A stretch of 64,000 nt of DNA from the IMG/VR virus record IMGVR_UViG_3300027741_000038. The stretch is one strand, 5' to 3'. The notes under the pieces were generated by a model. That model saw only the letters and a program-made list of their open reading frames with translations. It was not told where the DNA came from and searched no databases. Positions 9,774 through 63,724 of the stretch are shown piece by piece. A program made the position numbers and the translations under genes. This stretch comes from an uncultured virus (IMG/VR IMGVR_UViG_3300027741_000038) (Duplodnaviria; Heunggongvirae; Uroviricota; Caudoviricetes). Positions within the stretch are counted from its first letter, which is position 1; every line of letters starts with the position of its first letter.

Positions 9774-10223
9774 TTACATTATAGTTGTTTTAATTGATGC
9801 TGTCAATTGCCAGTTCCAAAATTCATGCTGTGCTAATCTATCTGCAAAAAAATTAAGAATTGATTGTTCACGAGAAGCATCTGCAACATCGCAAGCACTC
9901 TTTAATTTTTCAATAATATGATTGTTTGTTGTAATTAATTCAAGATACATCTGTGTGGCACTTAATTCAAGCGAATCATTAATTTTTAAATCACTGTTTG
10001 CTTGTAGCTGAGCTAATCCAAATGGTGCTTTTGAATTTAATTTACGAATATTTTCTGCATATGTATCAATTGAATCAAATAGATCTTCATAGATTTCTAG
10101 GAAAAATGCGTGATCTTGCTTAAACATACGACCTTCTACATTCCAGTGATATCCGTGTGATTGTGCATACATATTCATTGAATCTGCTTGCAGTTCTTTT
10201 AGTACCTTAATTAATGCTTCCAT
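9774..10223 (-). CDS. dps: Dps/ferritin-like DNA protection protein (leaderless)
   Basis: HGYHWNVEG..F...H..F.EIYE...D..AE ferroxidase motif; TGGTATAAT 6 nt before ATG. Confidence 0.92.
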   Translation of the reverse strand: MEALIKVLKELQADSMNMYAQSHGYHWNVEGRMFKQDHAFFLEIYEDLFDSIDTYAENIRKLNSKAPFGLAQLQANSDLKINDSLELSATQMYLELITTNNHIIEKLKSACDVADASREQSILNFFADRLAQHEFWNWQLTASIKTTIM

Positions 10224-10244
10224 GCTTTTATTATACCAGCTTTT

Positions 10245-10388
10245 TTAATTAGAGCCTTTTGCTTTATATCCTCTATAGCCTGTTTTCTTCTTATTCATTG
10301 AGCCAGGCTTGTGGTACCCGCCTTTATTTGGCGTTGCTGCTTGGCGTTGAGCCAAAGCCTTTTCAACTTTGTCAAGATGCTTTCCCAT
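10245..10388 (-). CDS. 47-aa basic peptide (not in ORF track)
   Basis: MGKHLDKVEKALAQRQAATPNKGGYHKPGSMNKKKTGYRGYKAKGSN; AAGGAG SD; own TTGACA-N18-TATAAT promoter. Confidence 0.75.
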   Translation of the reverse strand: MGKHLDKVEKALAQRQAATPNKGGYHKPGSMNKKKTGYRGYKAKGSN

Positions 10389-10485
10389 TTTTTCTCCTTG
10401 TTTGGTTATTATTATTATAGTACGTTTACTACAATTTTGTCAACAGTTTTGCGTGAAATAAATCACAATGTATAATTACTTTATC

Positions 10486-10785
10486 ATGTCATCTATTAAT
10501 ATTATTCTTGCAGTTGGCGGAATTGCAACTGCTTTAGCAGCAATTGGTTATATTTTAGCAAAAGGATTTAAATTTATTCAATCTGCTACAAGATTTATGG
10601 ATGATTGGTACGGTACAGAAGAGTATCCAGGTGTGGTGGAAAGATTAGCACACGGTAATGCAAGATTTGATAATATTGAAAAAGAAATCAGCATAGTTAA
10701 AGCTGAATTATTTAATAACGGCGGATCATCATTGCGTGATTCAATTGATAGAATTGAAGAAGCCGTAACTAAAAAAAATAAATAA
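10486..10785 (+). CDS. membrane protein with coiled coil, lysis-associated type
   Basis: N-terminal TM, NGGSSLRDSIDRIE motif as in actinophage membrane proteins; TATAAT at 10471. Confidence 0.7.
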   Translation: MSSINIILAVGGIATALAAIGYILAKGFKFIQSATRFMDDWYGTEEYPGVVERLAHGNARFDNIEKEISIVKAELFNNGGSSLRDSIDRIEEAVTKKNK

Positions 10786-10786
10786 A

Positions 10787-10853
10787 GAGCAGTTTTTGTT
10801 TGGGGCTTGCTCAGGCCCCTAATCTGCGACTTCCCGATGAATGGATGCAGATT
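10787..10853 (-). ncRNA. candidate structured RNA: hairpin plus H-type pseudoknot
   Basis: AAUCUGC/GCAGAUU stem; GGGGC/GCCCC stem whose loop GAGCA pairs with UGCUC after an A-rich linker; U-rich tail. Confidence 0.55.
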
Positions 10854-10866
10854 TATATTATATACC

Positions 10867-11301
10867 TTATTTTATTTTAATGGTCTTAGGCTTTGCTTCT
10901 TCTGGAAGTTCCCGTTCAATATTAATTGAAAGTAATCCATTTTCAAGTGAAGCAGACTTAACAATCATATACTCGCCCAATGTAAAGTGTTGAGTAAAGT
11001 TACGTCCAGCAATTCCACGATGCAAGAAATCAGACTTTTCATCTTTTTCTTTTTCGCTCTTAATTGTTAGAGTATCTTTTTCTACCTTAATATCAAGGTC
11101 TTCACGGGAATATCCCGCAACTGCAAGTTCAATTACATAATTGTCCTCGTCAACCTTTTTTACATTATATGGTGGGAATTGAGATGTTGTTTTTTTATTT
11201 GATTCCCATCTTACAAACTGATCATTAAACCCTAGAAAGAACGGGTCATTAAAAATAGATTGAATTTGTACAAATGGGTCTATATACTTTAGATGTGTCA
11301 T
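10867..11301 (-). CDS. hsp20: small heat-shock protein (Hsp20/IbpA family)
   Basis: FPPYNV, IELAVAG, LHRGIAGRNF, ASLENGLLSI. Confidence 0.93.
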   Translation of the reverse strand: MTHLKYIDPFVQIQSIFNDPFFLGFNDQFVRWESNKKTTSQFPPYNVKKVDEDNYVIELAVAGYSREDLDIKVEKDTLTIKSEKEKDEKSDFLHRGIAGRNFTQHFTLGEYMIVKSASLENGLLSINIERELPEEAKPKTIKIK

Positions 11302-11360
11302 GTTACTTAGCTCCTTTTCAGCAAGTTAGTTAAATTCAGAACCCTTACGGCATTCTGTAT
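11302..11360 (-). promoter_or_regulatory. ROSE-like RNA thermometer in the hsp20 5' UTR
   Basis: CUUGCU-GAAA-AGGAG hairpin masks the SD with a bulged G; upstream CAGAA/UUCUG hairpin; TGATATAAT just upstream. Confidence 0.65.
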
Positions 11361-11377
11361 ATATATTATATCACAAA

Positions 11378-12415
11378 CTATGAATTAGATCTACCATGCT
11401 GATCGGAACGATTTCCGTATCCCACACTTGGCTTCCCGTCATTTTGCGGTGGGCTATTGTAAGTTGATCTCCAACCAACATCTCCCATACGATCACCAAA
11501 ATTAGTTCCAGAAACTATGTCTCCTGTAGGAGTAAATACTCCATCCCAAATAGATGTTGAATCTTTTGTTGGAACTGGATCTCCACCTTTTACAATAGGT
11601 TCATTTACTGCAATTGCAGCCATAGCTTCTTCTGCATGTGCTTTAGTTGTATAGCAACCAATTACTTGACCAGTTCCCACTTTAGTAATAGCATATCCGC
11701 CTTGGCAATCTGGAACATTGTATTCAAGTTTAAATCCATTTCCGCCGCCCAATCTTCCAGCACCAGCTGATTCTTTTTCAATTTTGTTTTCTCTGTTTAC
11801 AATAGCACGAGACCATGCAAATCCTGCATCTCCGCCCCAAGCATTCCACATAATTTTTCCGTTAGAAGGATCGTTCCAATTTTTGCCCTTTTTATCAACT
11901 TCATGTCTTGAAAAGAAAGAATACATTCTTTTAACTGTATCAAGAGACATTGATCTTCCAGCAACTATATCACTTGCACGACCCCAACCTACGGGTGTTC
12001 CTGCTCCAGTTGCTAGGCCTGCATCTCTCCATTTTAATGCACGGCGTGCCGCTGCTTTCATTCCCGCATTTGGCTGATATCCACCATCAGCTTTTTTGAC
12101 TGGAATACAATTAGGAACTGTCTTTCCATCTTTATCTTTAGTCCCAGCATATTCATAGCCTTCCCAACATGGGCCTTGTCCTTTTTCAATACATGAGATA
12201 CATTTTTCTGTATCTGAAATATAATGATGATCATTACCTAAATCATCGCATCCGCAAGTCATGCATTTTTTTACACTTGCTTCTGGTTCATTGGCATATA
12301 AAGCAGCCATTTGTGCTTGTGCTTTTTGTTTGCTTGGATGTGTTCCAGCAACATGTCCAGTATTTTGTGCTACTACTGAAAACTTATCTCCGTGTTGAAT
12401 TATTTTATATGGCAT
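11378..12415 (-). CDS. modular head-associated protein (leaderless)
   Basis: Two related small domains ending AQMAALYANE/EAMAAIAVNE, PCWEGY..VPNC module, RMYSFFSRH domain, SIWDGVF; TGATATAAT 6 nt before ATG. Confidence 0.7.
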   Translation of the reverse strand: MPYKIIQHGDKFSVVAQNTGHVAGTHPSKQKAQAQMAALYANEPEASVKKCMTCGCDDLGNDHHYISDTEKCISCIEKGQGPCWEGYEYAGTKDKDGKTVPNCIPVKKADGGYQPNAGMKAAARRALKWRDAGLATGAGTPVGWGRASDIVAGRSMSLDTVKRMYSFFSRHEVDKKGKNWNDPSNGKIMWNAWGGDAGFAWSRAIVNRENKIEKESAGAGRLGGGNGFKLEYNVPDCQGGYAITKVGTGQVIGCYTTKAHAEEAMAAIAVNEPIVKGGDPVPTKDSTSIWDGVFTPTGDIVSGTNFGDRMGDVGWRSTYNSPPQNDGKPSVGYGNRSDQHGRSNS

Positions 12416-12431
12416 AGTAATATTATATCAG

Positions 12432-12668: not shown

Positions 12669-12672
12669 TTAG

Positions 12673-12743
12673 AGCGAATAGCGAGAATCGAACTCGCACA
12701 TTAACCTTGGCAAGGTTACGCACTACCACTATGCAATATTCGC
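12673..12743 (-). tRNA. tRNA-Gly(GCC)
   Basis: gcgaata/tattcgc acceptor, taacc-TT-GCC-AA-ggtta, discriminator U. Confidence 0.93.
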
Positions 12744-12744
12744 A

Positions 12745-12872
12745 GGGGCTATAAACGATTGCGACTTCCAGTTGCACATGACGTACATGCTGTATCTGTC
12801 TCACACGCCACTCATCCGAGTTTCGGGTGTATATGTAACTATAACATCCTAAGTTGTGTCGTTTATAGCCTT
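12745..12872. ncRNA. unknown structured RNA/element with a 23S helix-69-like hairpin
   Basis: Perfect 12-bp terminal inverted repeat ggctataaacga/tcgtttatagcc extended by G-U pairs; three internal hairpins; fills the gap between two tRNAs. Confidence 0.7.
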
Positions 12873-12873
12873 G

Positions 12874-12947
12874 TAGAGCAAGTAGGACTTGAACCTACGA
12901 TTACCGAATTATGAGTTCGGGGCTTTAACCAACTAAGCTATTGCTCC
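12874..12947 (-). tRNA. tRNA with CAU anticodon, probably Ile2 (lysidine); elongator Met not excluded
   Basis: ccgaa-CT-CAT-AA-ttcgg; lacks the initiator GGG/CCC anticodon stem. Confidence 0.85.
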
Positions 12948-12955
12948 CTATTTAA

Positions 12956-13195
12956 TTATGCGTGTGGAGGTTTTTTTGCTTTATTTTCTTTTATTTTATG
13001 CCGCTCATCAATAGTTTCATATGCAAACACTGATAATGCTTTTTCATTTTTTGCGTAGTGATGACCGCAAAACATAAGTTGACCTGTTACGCCTTTTACT
13101 AAAACTAAGGCTTCTGCATAACATTGATCGCAACGATCAAGTGGGCTTAATACATACTGTACTTCTTCTGCAACTGATTCTATTGTCATATTCAT
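12956..13195 (-). CDS. small zinc-binding actinobacterial-type protein
   Basis: DRCDQC...LMFCGHH; start moved downstream of tRNA-Asn. Confidence 0.75.
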   Translation of the reverse strand: MNMTIESVAEEVQYVLSPLDRCDQCYAEALVLVKGVTGQLMFCGHHYAKNEKALSVFAYETIDERHKIKENKAKKPPHA

Positions 13196-13230
13196 AATTA
13201 TACTCTCTCTAGTAGTTGTTTTGTAATTTG

Positions 13231-13303
13231 CTGGCCCACCAGGTCTCGATCCTGGGACATTCGAATTAACAGTTCGACGCTCTACCAACTGAGCTATGGG
13301 CCA
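13231..13303 (-). tRNA. tRNA-Asn(GUU)
   Basis: tggccca/tgggcca acceptor, tcgaa-CT-GTT-AA-ttcga; atypical T-arm GATCGAG. Confidence 0.9.
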
Positions 13304-13313
13304 TCAGTAAAAT

Positions 13314-13601
13314 TTATTCTACTATACCAAATGGATTTTTGTCAATCATTTTAAGCAAATCTTCTGGACTATCAATTAATCTTCTTTGTGCTTCAAACTT
13401 GCCCAACTGTACCATTTCATCTGCAATTGTGTGCATCATATCAAGCAATCCTGCAGCATATCTTTTATTTTTAGGATCAGCTTCTTCAATTTCTTTTTGC
13501 ATGTTTACAACTGATTGTGTAAAATATTCGCAAAGTTGTGTAAGCGAAATATAAATATCTTTTTCATCTTCAATTGTTCTTATTGTGCCATTTGCCAACA
13601 T
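13314..13601 (-). CDS. hypothetical protein
   Basis: ORF with AAAGG SD. Confidence 0.7.
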   Translation of the reverse strand: MLANGTIRTIEDEKDIYISLTQLCEYFTQSVVNMQKEIEEADPKNKRYAAGLLDMMHTIADEMVQLGKFEAQRRLIDSPEDLLKMIDKNPFGIVE

Positions 13602-60914: not shown

Positions 60915-61484
60915 TTAATACTTGTCTATTAGCAGGTTCGCGTTGACAACTGACCTTACAGAGTGTTTTTGAGGAGGGGTTATGGCGTGAAAATGCCTAC
61001 CGTCCACAACAAACGCCGCGCCTCTTTTAGGGGATATTGAGTGCATAATCGTAAGAGGGGGCTTAATAATCTGACCAGTAAACGTATCCTCATATAAAAC
61101 TGTATCCCCATCACTATCGTGCAGGTAATACAAAAATATTAAATGCGGGTCGTCCCTGTCTACGTGTGGGTATAGCGACCCAGTCTTAAAAGTATGAGGG
61201 GTTACGTTAAGTTTTACCCTACCAAGGGAGGTATAAGCTATGCCGTGTTTTATACAGAACTTATCAATTAGCCACTTAAAGTCTTTGTGTATAGGTGAAC
61301 CTTCAGGTATTCCAGCTGAAAAATAAGGTACATCTTTTTTACGTGTATTTACAACACCAGGGTGGTCTACGTCGTTACTTTGAGTTCCTTTAAAATAGCA
61401 CCAAGGTGTATCTACAGAATAGAAAAGGTCGTCTACAAAACGCATTTCGTCTTCGGTAAGGAAGTCATCATCGTATATAAACAT
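60915..61484 (-). CDS. 2OG-Fe(II) oxygenase
   Basis: PHVD, LYYL.DSDGDT, FHA..P....R. Confidence 0.8.
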   Translation of the reverse strand: MFIYDDDFLTEDEMRFVDDLFYSVDTPWCYFKGTQSNDVDHPGVVNTRKKDVPYFSAGIPEGSPIHKDFKWLIDKFCIKHGIAYTSLGRVKLNVTPHTFKTGSLYPHVDRDDPHLIFLYYLHDSDGDTVLYEDTFTGQIIKPPLTIMHSISPKRGAAFVVDGRHFHAITPPQKHSVRSVVNANLLIDKY

Positions 61485-62218
61485 TATTTGTAAACCTTAC
61501 GTTCCCAGTAAAGCTTTTTATACACCCCACTAGGCTCAGTTCTAAAAACATCCCCAACGTGTTGTTTAGCGTGTGCCTCTTGGTCCGTAAGCATACTTAT
61601 ATTGCTTTTCCAAAGCTCTCTTTTAAAAGGTATTATTTGAACGTAGGGGGTACCTTTTGGTATTACACCTTTAAAACTTCTTTTTAAGAATAAAGGAACG
61701 TTTCCAGGCGTATCCATTTTATCGTTTTCAATAATACCGTTAGTTACAACCCAAGGTAAATCAAACCTATTTAATGGGCTTACGTATAAAGCGCTATATC
61801 CTTCAGGCAAGCTAACCCCCCACTGAGGCAGCACCGCTATATGATGAGGGTAGCAGTCATCTGGGGCGCTAAATCCTTTCATTTCTGGGCGAACCTCAAT
61901 AAAAGTTTTATATTTTTCATCAATTGATACGTGAATATCATCGCCATCCACTTCTATTAAAATATCAGTAGGTGTTACAAAACAATAACCCAGTGACATA
62001 GCGTCAAAGAACGGCATACAAGCTTTAAACGTTGGTTTATTTACGTCGCCCTCTAAATAACGTTCCGCTTCTCTGTACCAGTGGGGTAGTGAATAGAGTG
62101 CGGTAATAGGGTTATTTGGGTCGTCTTGGAGCTTATTATCAAATGAATAAAAAGTAATCTCTTTATCTGTAGGTTTCACCGAATATGTCCTCTGGGTAGC
62201 TGTAATCAACAGAATCAT
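61484..62218 (-). CDS. hypothetical protein often found with phage 2OG oxygenases
   Basis: KACMPFFDAM..GY, P.GYS, GTP..QIIPFKR. Confidence 0.7.
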   Translation of the reverse strand: MILLITATQRTYSVKPTDKEITFYSFDNKLQDDPNNPITALYSLPHWYREAERYLEGDVNKPTFKACMPFFDAMSLGYCFVTPTDILIEVDGDDIHVSIDEKYKTFIEVRPEMKGFSAPDDCYPHHIAVLPQWGVSLPEGYSALYVSPLNRFDLPWVVTNGIIENDKMDTPGNVPLFLKRSFKGVIPKGTPYVQIIPFKRELWKSNISMLTDQEAHAKQHVGDVFRTEPSGVYKKLYWERKVYK

Positions 62219-62531
62219 AATAGCGTGTTAGCTTTGGGCTATTTTCTTGAATATACTGCAACACGTCCATAGTGTTATCAAATTTTAACGATAACTGTGT
62301 TAAATGTTCCGCAGCCTCATTATGAAAAGACTTAGCCTCCTCTTCGGAAGAATGAAGATTATAAAACAATATTTTAAGGTGTGAAATTTTTCCTTCATGC
62401 TCTGAAGGAAGAAGAGCAGTTTCATATTTATTGTTTATTAATTTAATAGTATTTAATCTAAAGTAAATACGGTCGTCAAACTTCAATAAAGTTTTTAATT
62501 CCCAATGATTTATAGTCGGATCATATGCCAT
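62163..62531 (-). CDS. hypothetical protein
   Basis: ORF in operon. Confidence 0.55.
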   Translation of the reverse strand: MAYDPTINHWELKTLLKFDDRIYFRLNTIKLINNKYETALLPSEHEGKISHLKILFYNLHSSEEEAKSFHNEAAEHLTQLSLKFDNTMDVLQYIQENSPKLTRYYDSVDYSYPEDIFGETYR

Positions 62532-62534
62532 TTT

Positions 62535-63155
62535 TTATACCTCTTGTTCTAACTTATCCTCATGGTTTGCGTATTCCGTCCAAAAACTAGAAATAGTATA
62601 GCGGGTGCCGTTCAATACCCTTTTAACTCCATGAGAGTGGTGCACATCCCCTGGAAAAAAAGCAAGCATGCCCGGTTTAACGGGGATAGAAATGCCGTGT
62701 TGGGGAAAATGAATATCTCCCCCCTCAAAATCATCGTTTAAATATAAAACGCAACCCACCTGTCGCCAGTTATACACATGCGGCTCTAACCCATAGTTTT
62801 CAAAGTCTGAGTGGGCTGGTTGAACGTATCCGTGGGGCCACTTAATTAAATTTAAACTGTCGGCGTATACAACATCAAGGTTATAAACTTTCATTATCTC
62901 GTGTTTAATCCTTGTTCTTAAGTTAACTAATTTATTAAAAATGTCAATGTCATAAGGTGTCCCTAACCCCTTTCCAATGGATTTAAGATTTGCAGCGCCC
63001 ATAAATCTATTAGACCACTGGCTGTAGGGGTCACCCGTAGAGTCCCCCATATCCCAAAGACCATTAGTATCTAAATACTTTTGATAGTTTATAAATAAAT
63101 CAATTTCTTCTTTTTTTATAAAATCGTGGATAACTATTATGTCCTCTTTAGCCAT
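62535..63155 (-). CDS. 2OG-Fe(II) oxygenase (P4H-like)
   Basis: HSD...YLNDDFEGG...HGV....G.RY. Confidence 0.88.
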   Translation of the reverse strand: MAKEDIIVIHDFIKKEEIDLFINYQKYLDTNGLWDMGDSTGDPYSQWSNRFMGAANLKSIGKGLGTPYDIDIFNKLVNLRTRIKHEIMKVYNLDVVYADSLNLIKWPHGYVQPAHSDFENYGLEPHVYNWRQVGCVLYLNDDFEGGDIHFPQHGISIPVKPGMLAFFPGDVHHSHGVKRVLNGTRYTISSFWTEYANHEDKLEQEV

Positions 63156-63157
63156 AT

Positions 63158-63724
63158 CTATTTCCTATCTAAAAATGATTGAGCCGCGGATACCGAGTAA
63201 TCGTAAGACCAAAACGAAGTTATAGCATACCTAACACCATTAAATATCTCAGTTACCCCGTGCATATACTCAAAAGTGGAGGGAAACATTACTAATAAAT
63301 TTGGTTTTGGGGTAACAGTTGTATTTTGATTTGGAAACCATAGGTCGCCCCCAGAAAACTCCCCACCCAAATAAATTAACGCAGAGAATTTTCTATGTGA
63401 GGTTCCATTGTCTTCCCCGTTATTTCCCGTAGAATCAGAGTGCGGGTTGCCAGTCTGCCCTCTATAAGTCCTAGCAAATTGAAGGAGTTCCGCATACAGA
63501 GGAACCTCTATATTAAAAGTGTTAGTTATTTCAGCTGACATTTTAATAGAAGTATCTTTTAAAAGATTAAGAAGCTCGGTTGACTTAACTGAATGCGGGT
63601 TTATACATCTACTATCCCACAAAGGGGTGTGAGGAAGCGGCTCCCAGTCCTCTGTAGTTAAAACATAATTAGAAAGGGTATTAAAGTCATCTTCTAAAAG
63701 AAAGTTTTCTTTTTGTATAATCAT
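63158..63724 (-). CDS. 2OG-Fe(II) oxygenase (P4H-like)
   Basis: HSD...YL...F.GG...HGV....G.RY. Confidence 0.88.
   Translation of the reverse strand: MIIQKENFLLEDDFNTLSNYVLTTEDWEPLPHTPLWDSRCINPHSVKSTELLNLLKDTSIKMSAEITNTFNIEVPLYAELLQFARTYRGQTGNPHSDSTGNNGEDNGTSHRKFSALIYLGGEFSGGDLWFPNQNTTVTPKPNLLVMFPSTFEYMHGVTEIFNGVRYAITSFWSYDYSVSAAQSFLDRK

Follow-up and report, generated by a model that had tools for sequence, protein, structure and literature searches.

The window analysed here, that is, the whole stretch of 64,000 nucleotides from an uncultured virus of the Caudoviricetes, carries a cluster of genes that all lie on the minus strand, in the order terminase large subunit, a 95-aa ORF, tRNA-Asn, a 110-aa ORF with a DUF7455 domain, and tRNA(CAT). 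Next comes the element studied here, followed by tRNA-Gly and then by tRNA-Leu, tRNA-Ser and tRNA-Gln. The features are as follows (RNA positions count along the element, 5' to 3', in the tRNA sense).

12744-12872, minus (tRNA-sense) strand: the whole element, 129 nt, which exactly fills the gap between two minus-strand tRNAs
12873-12947, minus strand: upstream tRNA with anticodon CAT (Met or Ile2), found by ARAGORN and by the Rfam tRNA model (71.1 bits)
12672-12743, minus strand: downstream tRNA-Gly (GCC), found by ARAGORN and Rfam, its 5' end 3 nt past P1
13641-15488, minus strand: terminase large subunit
13316-13345, minus strand: promoter-like TTGACA-18-TAGAAT upstream of tRNA-Asn (consensus scan, 11/12 matches), candidate start of the transcript carrying the element
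12859-12870, minus strand: 5' strand of the closing stem P1, RNA 3-14, GGCUAUAAACGA, perfect complement of 12747-12758
12747-12758, minus strand: 3' strand of P1, RNA 115-126, UCGUUUAUAGCC, followed by CCU and then by tRNA-Gly
12830-12853, minus strand: invariant core CUUAGGAUGUUAUAGUUACAUAUA, RNA 20-43, whose complement is the stretch resembling helix 69 (H69) of 23S rRNA
12826-12849, minus strand: hairpin P2, RNA 24-47, with apical loop GUUACA at 12834-12839 (minimum-energy fold)
12838-12846, minus strand: TGTTATAGT, an extended -10-like motif within P2
12806-12825, minus strand: predicted hairpin P3, RNA 48-67 (minimum-energy fold)
12760-12805, minus strand: domain P4, RNA 68-113, predicted only (minimum-energy fold and alignments)

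Neither ARAGORN nor the Rfam tRNA model recognised a cloverleaf in the element. The 110-aa ORF (12956-13288, minus strand), which lies between tRNA-Asn and tRNA(CAT), has a CxxC...CGHH pattern as well as its DUF7455 domain (E 6e-15); its place relative to the element differs among relatives, and it was not found in the fetched flanks (up to 6 kb) of the L054-L068 group. Stress-type genes for an Hsp20 and a ferritin/Dps-like protein occur near the tRNA region (9774-11301, 60915-63724), four ORFs of the window have 2OG-Fe(II) oxygenase domains, and in relative L057 a peroxiredoxin-like ORF follows the element at about 8077. Contigs from a lake metatranscriptome match the 345-aa ORF adjoining the tRNA cluster (11304-12392) almost without differences, so the phage of the window or a near-identical one was present there; the element lies outside those contigs.

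The original prediction described the gap as a structured non-coding element closed by a perfect 12-bp inverted repeat (12747-12758 / 12859-12870), and both parts of this description hold. The repeat, P1, is confirmed in the window, and the covariation proposed as a check is strong. In a MAFFT alignment made without reference to structure, 11 of the 12 P1 pairs showed compensatory changes. In an alignment of 46 distinct sequences to our covariance model R1, all 12 pairs did so and 98.7% of cells were paired; this second alignment was fitted to the structure, so that its pair counts lean towards the model, whereas the MAFFT result is independent of it. None of 500 shuffles reached the observed values, and sliding the partner strand left only 25-48% pairing. 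P1 measured 11-14 bp in 39 loci (12 bp in 31) while its sequence changed freely, and even within the subtype of the window a compensatory A-U to G-C change was found in L202. The minus strand of the window folds at -37.7 kcal/mol (z -2.8 against shuffled controls) and the plus strand better, at -44.6 kcal/mol (z -4.5). A single sequence would not suffice to exclude a chance origin of the structure; the comparative data do exclude it. A cmscan search against Rfam 15, also proposed earlier, matched no family to the element at E<=10 in the window and 11 relatives' loci. Judged from sequence comparison, the gap at 12744-12872 encodes a conserved, folded small RNA of an uncatalogued family.

The plus strand had been favoured as the transcribed one, and here the evidence points the other way. 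Scored on the tRNA-sense strand over the 46 distinct sequences, G·U or U·G pairs number 23 in P1 and 12 in P2, and A·C or C·A pairs, which the opposite strand would show as wobbles, number 2 and 3; the sum is 35 versus 5 in favour of the tRNA-sense strand. The neighbouring genes are all on the minus strand, and the consensus scan found no promoter-like site on the plus strand near the element. From the wobble asymmetry, the gene orientation and the lack of such a site we conclude, on sequence grounds, that the RNA is read from the minus (tRNA-sense) strand. About eight further plus-strand pairs had been said to extend the stem; all eight form in the window, but the extension is perfect only there, falling to 7/8 in L003, L045 and L037 and to 6/8 in L202, with losses never compensated, and it is absent from other subtypes.

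In the transcribed sense the core reads CUUAG-GAUGK-UAUAGUUAC and forms the 5' strand and loop of the apical hairpin. The 24-nt sequence has no second copy in the window even with 3 mismatches allowed; among the distinct homologs UAGUUAC is found in 45/46 and CUURG (CUUAG or CUUGG) likewise in 45/46, and the invariant core measures 19 nt. P2 closes UAUA on UAUA round GUUACA, and its upper stem has compensatory changes in two of four pairs (A-U to G-C four times, to U-A once): where the 5' arm is UGUA, the 3' arm is UACA (four sequences) or a G·U pair forms (three), and where it is UUUA the 3' arm is UAAA (one sequence). Three internal hairpins had been proposed; internal hairpins do exist, but they are not the ones that were named. 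The P3-equivalent hairpin of other subtypes has the loop motif GUAAGAGU, and its arms differ yet remain complementary (CCCG/CGGG, CACC/GGUG, CCGUAGC/GUUAUGG, UUAUGG/CCAUAG and others), a listing from our own script with G·U allowed that is indicative and not a formal test. P4 varies by subtype, with a short hairpin in its place in the forms with gaps of 82-85 nt; these short forms keep P1, P2 and the small hairpin alone. The variable further hairpins make up a three- or four-way junction. RNAalifold run on the MAFFT alignments recovered P1 alone because the interior was misaligned. As P1 and the P2 core are the sole universal parts, the function should reside there.

The terminase of the window shares about 67% identity with its counterparts in Streptomyces phages (Stanwilliamsviridae). 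Closer relatives number in the hundreds and come from uncultivated viral contigs; 80 of these loci were kept. By blastn the element was found in 39 of 81 loci, mostly through its first 45 bases alone. The R1 model, built from 28 copies and searched in 83 sources, gave exactly one match in each of 62 of them, namely 60 of the 80 terminase loci, the window and L163. The match to the window (88.2 bits, E 1.4e-18) is the only one in 64 kb, and in oriented loci the matches lie on the terminase-sense strand every time. Several of the 20 terminase loci with no R1 match end at or just past the terminase match. Members span 77-136 nt across the closing stem, with R1 matches of 82-141 nt. The family is thus found in a clade of uncultivated phages, as a single copy that keeps its place downstream of the large terminase gene, and its conservation spans phages with terminases as little as about 66% identical. 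In the nearest record, G001, the element does not differ from that of the window, so this record is uninformative. In L045 the terminase is 83% and the element 98% identical to that of the window, and element subtypes are common to phages with divergent terminases, which fits the mosaic nature of tRNA regions.

Wider searches added little. When 50,697 phage records were searched by blastn with the element and with the complete tRNA region, the element stayed unmatched, and a distant-mode search of the same records matched tRNA parts alone among the best 40 of 135 matches. The main text of PMC10690425, which concerns about 10,000 viral structured RNAs, does not identify the motif, although its supplement may still list it; six contig numbers were not found in a portion of the supplementary files of PMC10690425. 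Scanning viral contigs for the core pattern returned 117 stretches, of which about 18 have the closing stem, with one new variant (L163); the stretches with no closing stem resemble the chance matches that a pattern with 15 fixed bases should yield. The same scan of the genomes of 185,579 species gave 5 matches, of which one is real (L202, 92.9 bits). L202 belongs to the subtype of the window and has tRNA-Met, Gln, Gly and Thr on its flanks. The 23.8-kb contig that carries it had been assigned to a Bacteroidia MAG, probably because a phage contig was binned there by mistake, and has no weight as host evidence.

The element lies downstream of the large terminase gene in every locus while its immediate neighbours vary, and in deep-branching relatives no more than a few tens of bases separate its start from where the terminase match ends. 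By our own reading of the loci, a tRNA (Met, Leu, Gln, Ile or Asp) abuts its 5' side in about 33 of 45 distinct loci, the element starting 0-2 nt past the tRNA in most loci. On the 3' side, again by our own reading, a tRNA lies 0-7 nt away in 27/45, most often Gly but in some loci Ser, Thr, Gln or Pro. In 9/45 the element has no tRNA on either side. Where an ORF comes next, an extended -10 motif (9 loci) or a ribosome-binding site is found within about 15 nt. The element thus behaves like a self-contained module with the packing of a tRNA gene. The upstream tRNA and the element are set apart by inserted DNA in L007 (8859-10566, about 1.7 kb) and L049 (2313-3164, about 0.85 kb), perhaps mobile genes; in L060, L065, L022, L031 and L039 the element is followed by HNH endonuclease ORFs.

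The likeness to 23S rRNA that first drew attention to the gap is real as a sequence match. The plus strand at 12833-12853 reads atgtaactataacatcctaag, and the blocks GTAACTATAAC-ATCCTAAG (12835-12853) are identical at 11/11 and 7/7 positions to 1910-1920 and 1923-1929 of E. coli K-12 rrlH 23S (1910-1929), as the original prediction of an H69-identical stretch would have it, with a spacer one base shorter than in 23S. Expressed in terms of the helix (E. coli 1906-1924), the plus strand of the window shares GUAACUAUAAC and UCCUAAG with 1910-1929. When a 26-nt core was scored against the E. coli rRNAs, 0 of 2000 shuffles reached its score.

The hairpin that was to display this sequence has fared less well. 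The proposed AUGU/ACAU stem with its 7-nt loop is in the minimum-energy fold of neither strand and is not kept in homologs. Its pairs (RNA 26-40, 27-39, 28-38 and 29-37) show 0/4 compensatory changes with values not above those of shuffles, the innermost, loop-closing pair is broken in 29/46 distinct homologs, and the AACUAUA loop, for which invariance had been proposed as a check, is kept in only 34/46. Nor is the likeness to H69 maintained, as had been supposed: it is strongest in the lineage of the window and fades until, in deep branches, it is no better than chance. The scores are 23 for L057 (reached in 28/2000 shuffles), 20 for L024 (253/2000) and 18 for L079 (931/2000), and L066 has its best rRNA match elsewhere. 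The H69 site is the top rRNA match in 28/46 distinct homologs, a count made against the E. coli rRNAs. Because all copies share one ancestor, the match amounts to one coincidence counted many times. Compared with the rRNA helix itself, then, the element has the likeness on the non-transcribed strand, in a hairpin that is not conserved, and loses it over the family; it is best read as a chance resemblance in an AU-rich hairpin. Two other rRNA resemblances were seen, both in sense orientation and in the subtype of the window alone, one to E. coli 23S 651-685 (score 30; 12812-12846, RNA 27-61; reached by 3/400 shuffles) and one to 16S 1037-1057 (score 25; 12787-12806, RNA 67-86; reached by 40/400). 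Other subtypes are without them, and we regard both as chance.

We lean, with only moderate confidence, towards reading the element as an uncatalogued small structured RNA that is co-transcribed with the terminase and tRNAs, released by tRNA processing and active in trans through its invariant hairpin. A candidate start of the transcript that carries it is the promoter-like TTGACA-18-TAGAAT site upstream of tRNA-Asn. To judge from position, RNase P cutting at the 5' end of the next tRNA would free the 3' end of the element, and 3' trimming of the preceding tRNA would free its 5' end; excision by tRNA processing is thus probable on the strength of the gene arrangement. The excised element would be a discrete RNA whose closed 12-bp helix may resist exonucleases. 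It might then act in trans, some conserved factor of the phage or the host binding to the invariant hairpin as to a scaffold or decoy. In the 9 of 45 distinct loci with no flanking tRNA, release would need another nuclease, or else the RNA stays in the mRNA. One point against this reading is the better fold of the plus strand in the window (-44.6 versus -37.7 kcal/mol).

As a non-tRNA RNA gene contiguous with same-strand tRNAs, the element has the layout of rnaC and rnaD (species 1 and 2) of phage T4, non-tRNA RNAs of 119-139 nt placed head-to-tail with tRNAs. In T4, rnaD lies 1 nt past tRNA-Arg and rnaC 6 nt past rnaD, and both are annotated as small, stable RNAs; to our knowledge their function is still unknown. 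The resemblance stops at the layout, with no likeness of sequence or fold: rnaC has a T-arm-like GGGUUCGAAUCCC hairpin that the element lacks, and neither T4 RNA has the 12-bp closing helix or the CUUAG...UAGUUAC core.

The alternative that survives best, which we consider possible but rather unlikely, is that the element acts only in cis, as an end module of the terminase/tRNA transcript whose stable, closed structure would mark and protect the 3' end of the RNA upstream of it or insulate the units on either side. Its constant place after the terminase gene, within a few tens of bases of the terminase match in deep branches, would suit such a role, as would the fresh extended -10 motif within about 15 nt in 9 distinct loci, as if a new unit started there. 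Some copies are followed by a U run (7 T in L064; CCCCTTTT in L022, L031 and L039), but these are a minority and most copies have none. A mere stabiliser, moreover, has no need of an invariant 19-nt core and loop, and in 27/45 distinct loci a tRNA of the same transcript comes directly next. An intrinsic terminator was rejected, a scan of the window having found no terminator-like site on the element and the U run being confined to that minority of homologs.

The remaining alternatives are far less probable than a cis-acting module. It seems very unlikely that the element is a self-cleaving ribozyme that would free the 3' end of the preceding tRNA, by analogy with the HDV-like theta ribozymes of gut phages. 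According to PMC10879173, theta ribozymes place their cleavage site at tRNA 3' ends, and they resemble the element in being small structured RNAs set against the 3' end of phage tRNA genes; they differ from it in architecture and belong to a different phage group and habitat. A start 0-2 nt past a tRNA in most loci and a multi-helix junction with conserved joining nucleotides would be in keeping with a ribozyme. Against it, no Rfam ribozyme family matched at E<=10, the 5' and 3' ends of the element pair together whereas HDV-like ribozymes are nested double pseudoknots, the short forms (gaps of 82-85 nt) lack most candidate core nucleotides, and 9/45 distinct loci have no adjoining tRNA.

A similarly small chance attaches to the caveat raised at the outset, an internal promoter: as an extended -10 site (TGTTATAGT), the core would drive transcription of the tRNAs downstream of it. 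The window has 30 copies of TGnTATAnT where 19.2 are expected, often a short way upstream of genes on the minus strand (minus-strand sites include 13321-13329, 12422-12430, 11365-11373 and 10230-10238), which suggests that many genes of the window have their own extended -10 promoter. The homologs, however, do not keep only the hexamer. TGnTAnnnT is kept in 28/46 distinct homologs and TAnnnT in 34/46, whereas the 12 losses of the hexamer (7 with TGTAGT and 1 with TTTAGT) occur while UAGUUAC and CUURG each persist in 45/46, so that a promoter is not the conserved unit. The TGTAGT and TTTAGT variants are each matched by a change or wobble on the other arm of P2, and conservation exceeds the -10 element, taking in CUUAG upstream and UAC downstream. 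An RNA begun at this site could not form P1, a stem under strong selection, and the 24-nt motif occurs only once in the window.

The rRNA match can also be taken at face value on the transcribed strand, and this too we think very improbable. The RNA would be antisense to 23S, with CUUAGGA and UAUAGUUAC pairing with 1923-1929 and 1910-1918, the 3' flank and loop of H69, and any effect would fall, in an unlikely scenario, on free 50S subunits or nascent rRNA. The core of the window is complementary to 18/20 bases of E. coli 23S 1910-1929, a score that 0/2000 shuffles equal, and the site is the top rRNA match for 28/46 distinct homologs. The best-conserved blocks, CUUAG and UAGUUAC, are the complementary ones, and variants in L025 and L067 lengthen the match by one base. 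Yet the match is at chance in deep branches (18 in L079, 20 in L024, best elsewhere in L066); U27 and G28, though invariant, lack complementarity to 23S, and variation falls on the complementary positions 23, 25 and 26. Most of the core is taken up by pairing within P2, and the would-be target, helix 69, is likewise folded into a hairpin and modified. The copies descend from one ancestor and so represent a single coincidence, the phage needs working ribosomes, and the complementarity was scored against E. coli 23S, from which the host rRNA may differ. The more specific proposal of a trans-acting anti-H69 RNA, whose core CUUAGGA...UAUAGUUAC would pair with the H69 loop and 3' flank and so, in the infected cell, tune subunit joining or shield the region of bridge B2a, is marginally less probable again. 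We know of no phage or bacterial RNA that acts as an anti-H69 RNA.

A role as a Y RNA-like partner of the Ro60 protein, which we rate lower still, came into question through Phredrick, a related Streptomyces phage with a gene for a Ro-like protein and, within its tRNA cluster, weak matches to YrlA. The terminal stem formed by the RNA's own 5' and 3' ends and the size of 80-140 nt are those one would want, and in both respects YrlA Y RNAs are like the element. The differences are that the element lacks a YrlA match and a tRNA-like module and that no Ro gene was found. The YrlA model (RF02553) did not match the element at E<=10, its matches falling on tRNAs only, and no T-arm or D-arm-like module is visible in the element. 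No TROVE domain turned up in 43 of the 45 window ORFs that reach 150 aa, nor in the contigs of any of 5 relatives, which are 56-85% complete, the window genome being likewise incomplete. P1 is a perfect helix with no bulge, whereas Ro sites typically carry a stem bulge, and R1 has no match in the Phredrick locus. In that phage (L199), three stretches at 11419-11810, between tRNA-Ile and tRNA-Ser, each start with GGGTCGGAT; the first of them matches YrlA over its full length but below threshold (29 bits against a gathering score of 69), and it has a T-arm and D-arm-like module. The gene for the Ro-like protein lies 1.6 kb downstream, and the record has no RNA annotation at these stretches. PMC4201824 reports Y RNA-like genes in the neighbourhood of Ro60 for over 250 species of bacteria and phages. 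The GNCGAAN0-1G motif given there was not seen, by eye, in the stem of the element.

Equally remote is an inverted-repeat element acting as DNA, such as a miniature mobile element, a cruciform or a packaging site beside the terminase gene. It would account for the terminal inverted repeats, for the linkage to the terminase gene and for subtypes incongruent with terminase identity (83% for the terminase against 98% for the element in L045). The mismatches, however, are nearly all G·U on one strand (35 versus 5), a bias that points to selection on a single strand, most simply an RNA, rather than on double-stranded DNA. Each genome has a single copy, and internal helices covary too. Least probable of all, and largely refuted already, is a plus-strand RNA displaying an H69 decoy: the identity to helix 69 does sit on the plus strand, which in the window also has the more stable fold, but the G·U and A·C counts favour the opposite strand, no promoter-like site lies nearby on the plus strand, the hairpin has no compensatory changes (closing pair broken in 29/46, AACUAUA loop kept in 34/46) and the plus-strand stem extension erodes uncompensated. 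A CsrA site (AGGAUGU), a T-box specifier (UAC), a phi29 pRNA-like packaging RNA, a retron msr/msd and 6S RNA were also considered and set aside.

A striking 18/20 match to a famous rRNA helix can fall on the wrong strand, and calls for caution. Phage tRNA clusters are usually annotated as tRNAs and gaps; here one gap is an RNA gene supported by covariation. The element is a well-defined addition to the short list of non-tRNA RNAs in phage tRNA arrays, which so far holds species 1 and 2 of T4 and Y-like RNAs, the roles of none of which are understood. Its linkage to the terminase gene and its tRNA-like packing provide concrete experimental handles.
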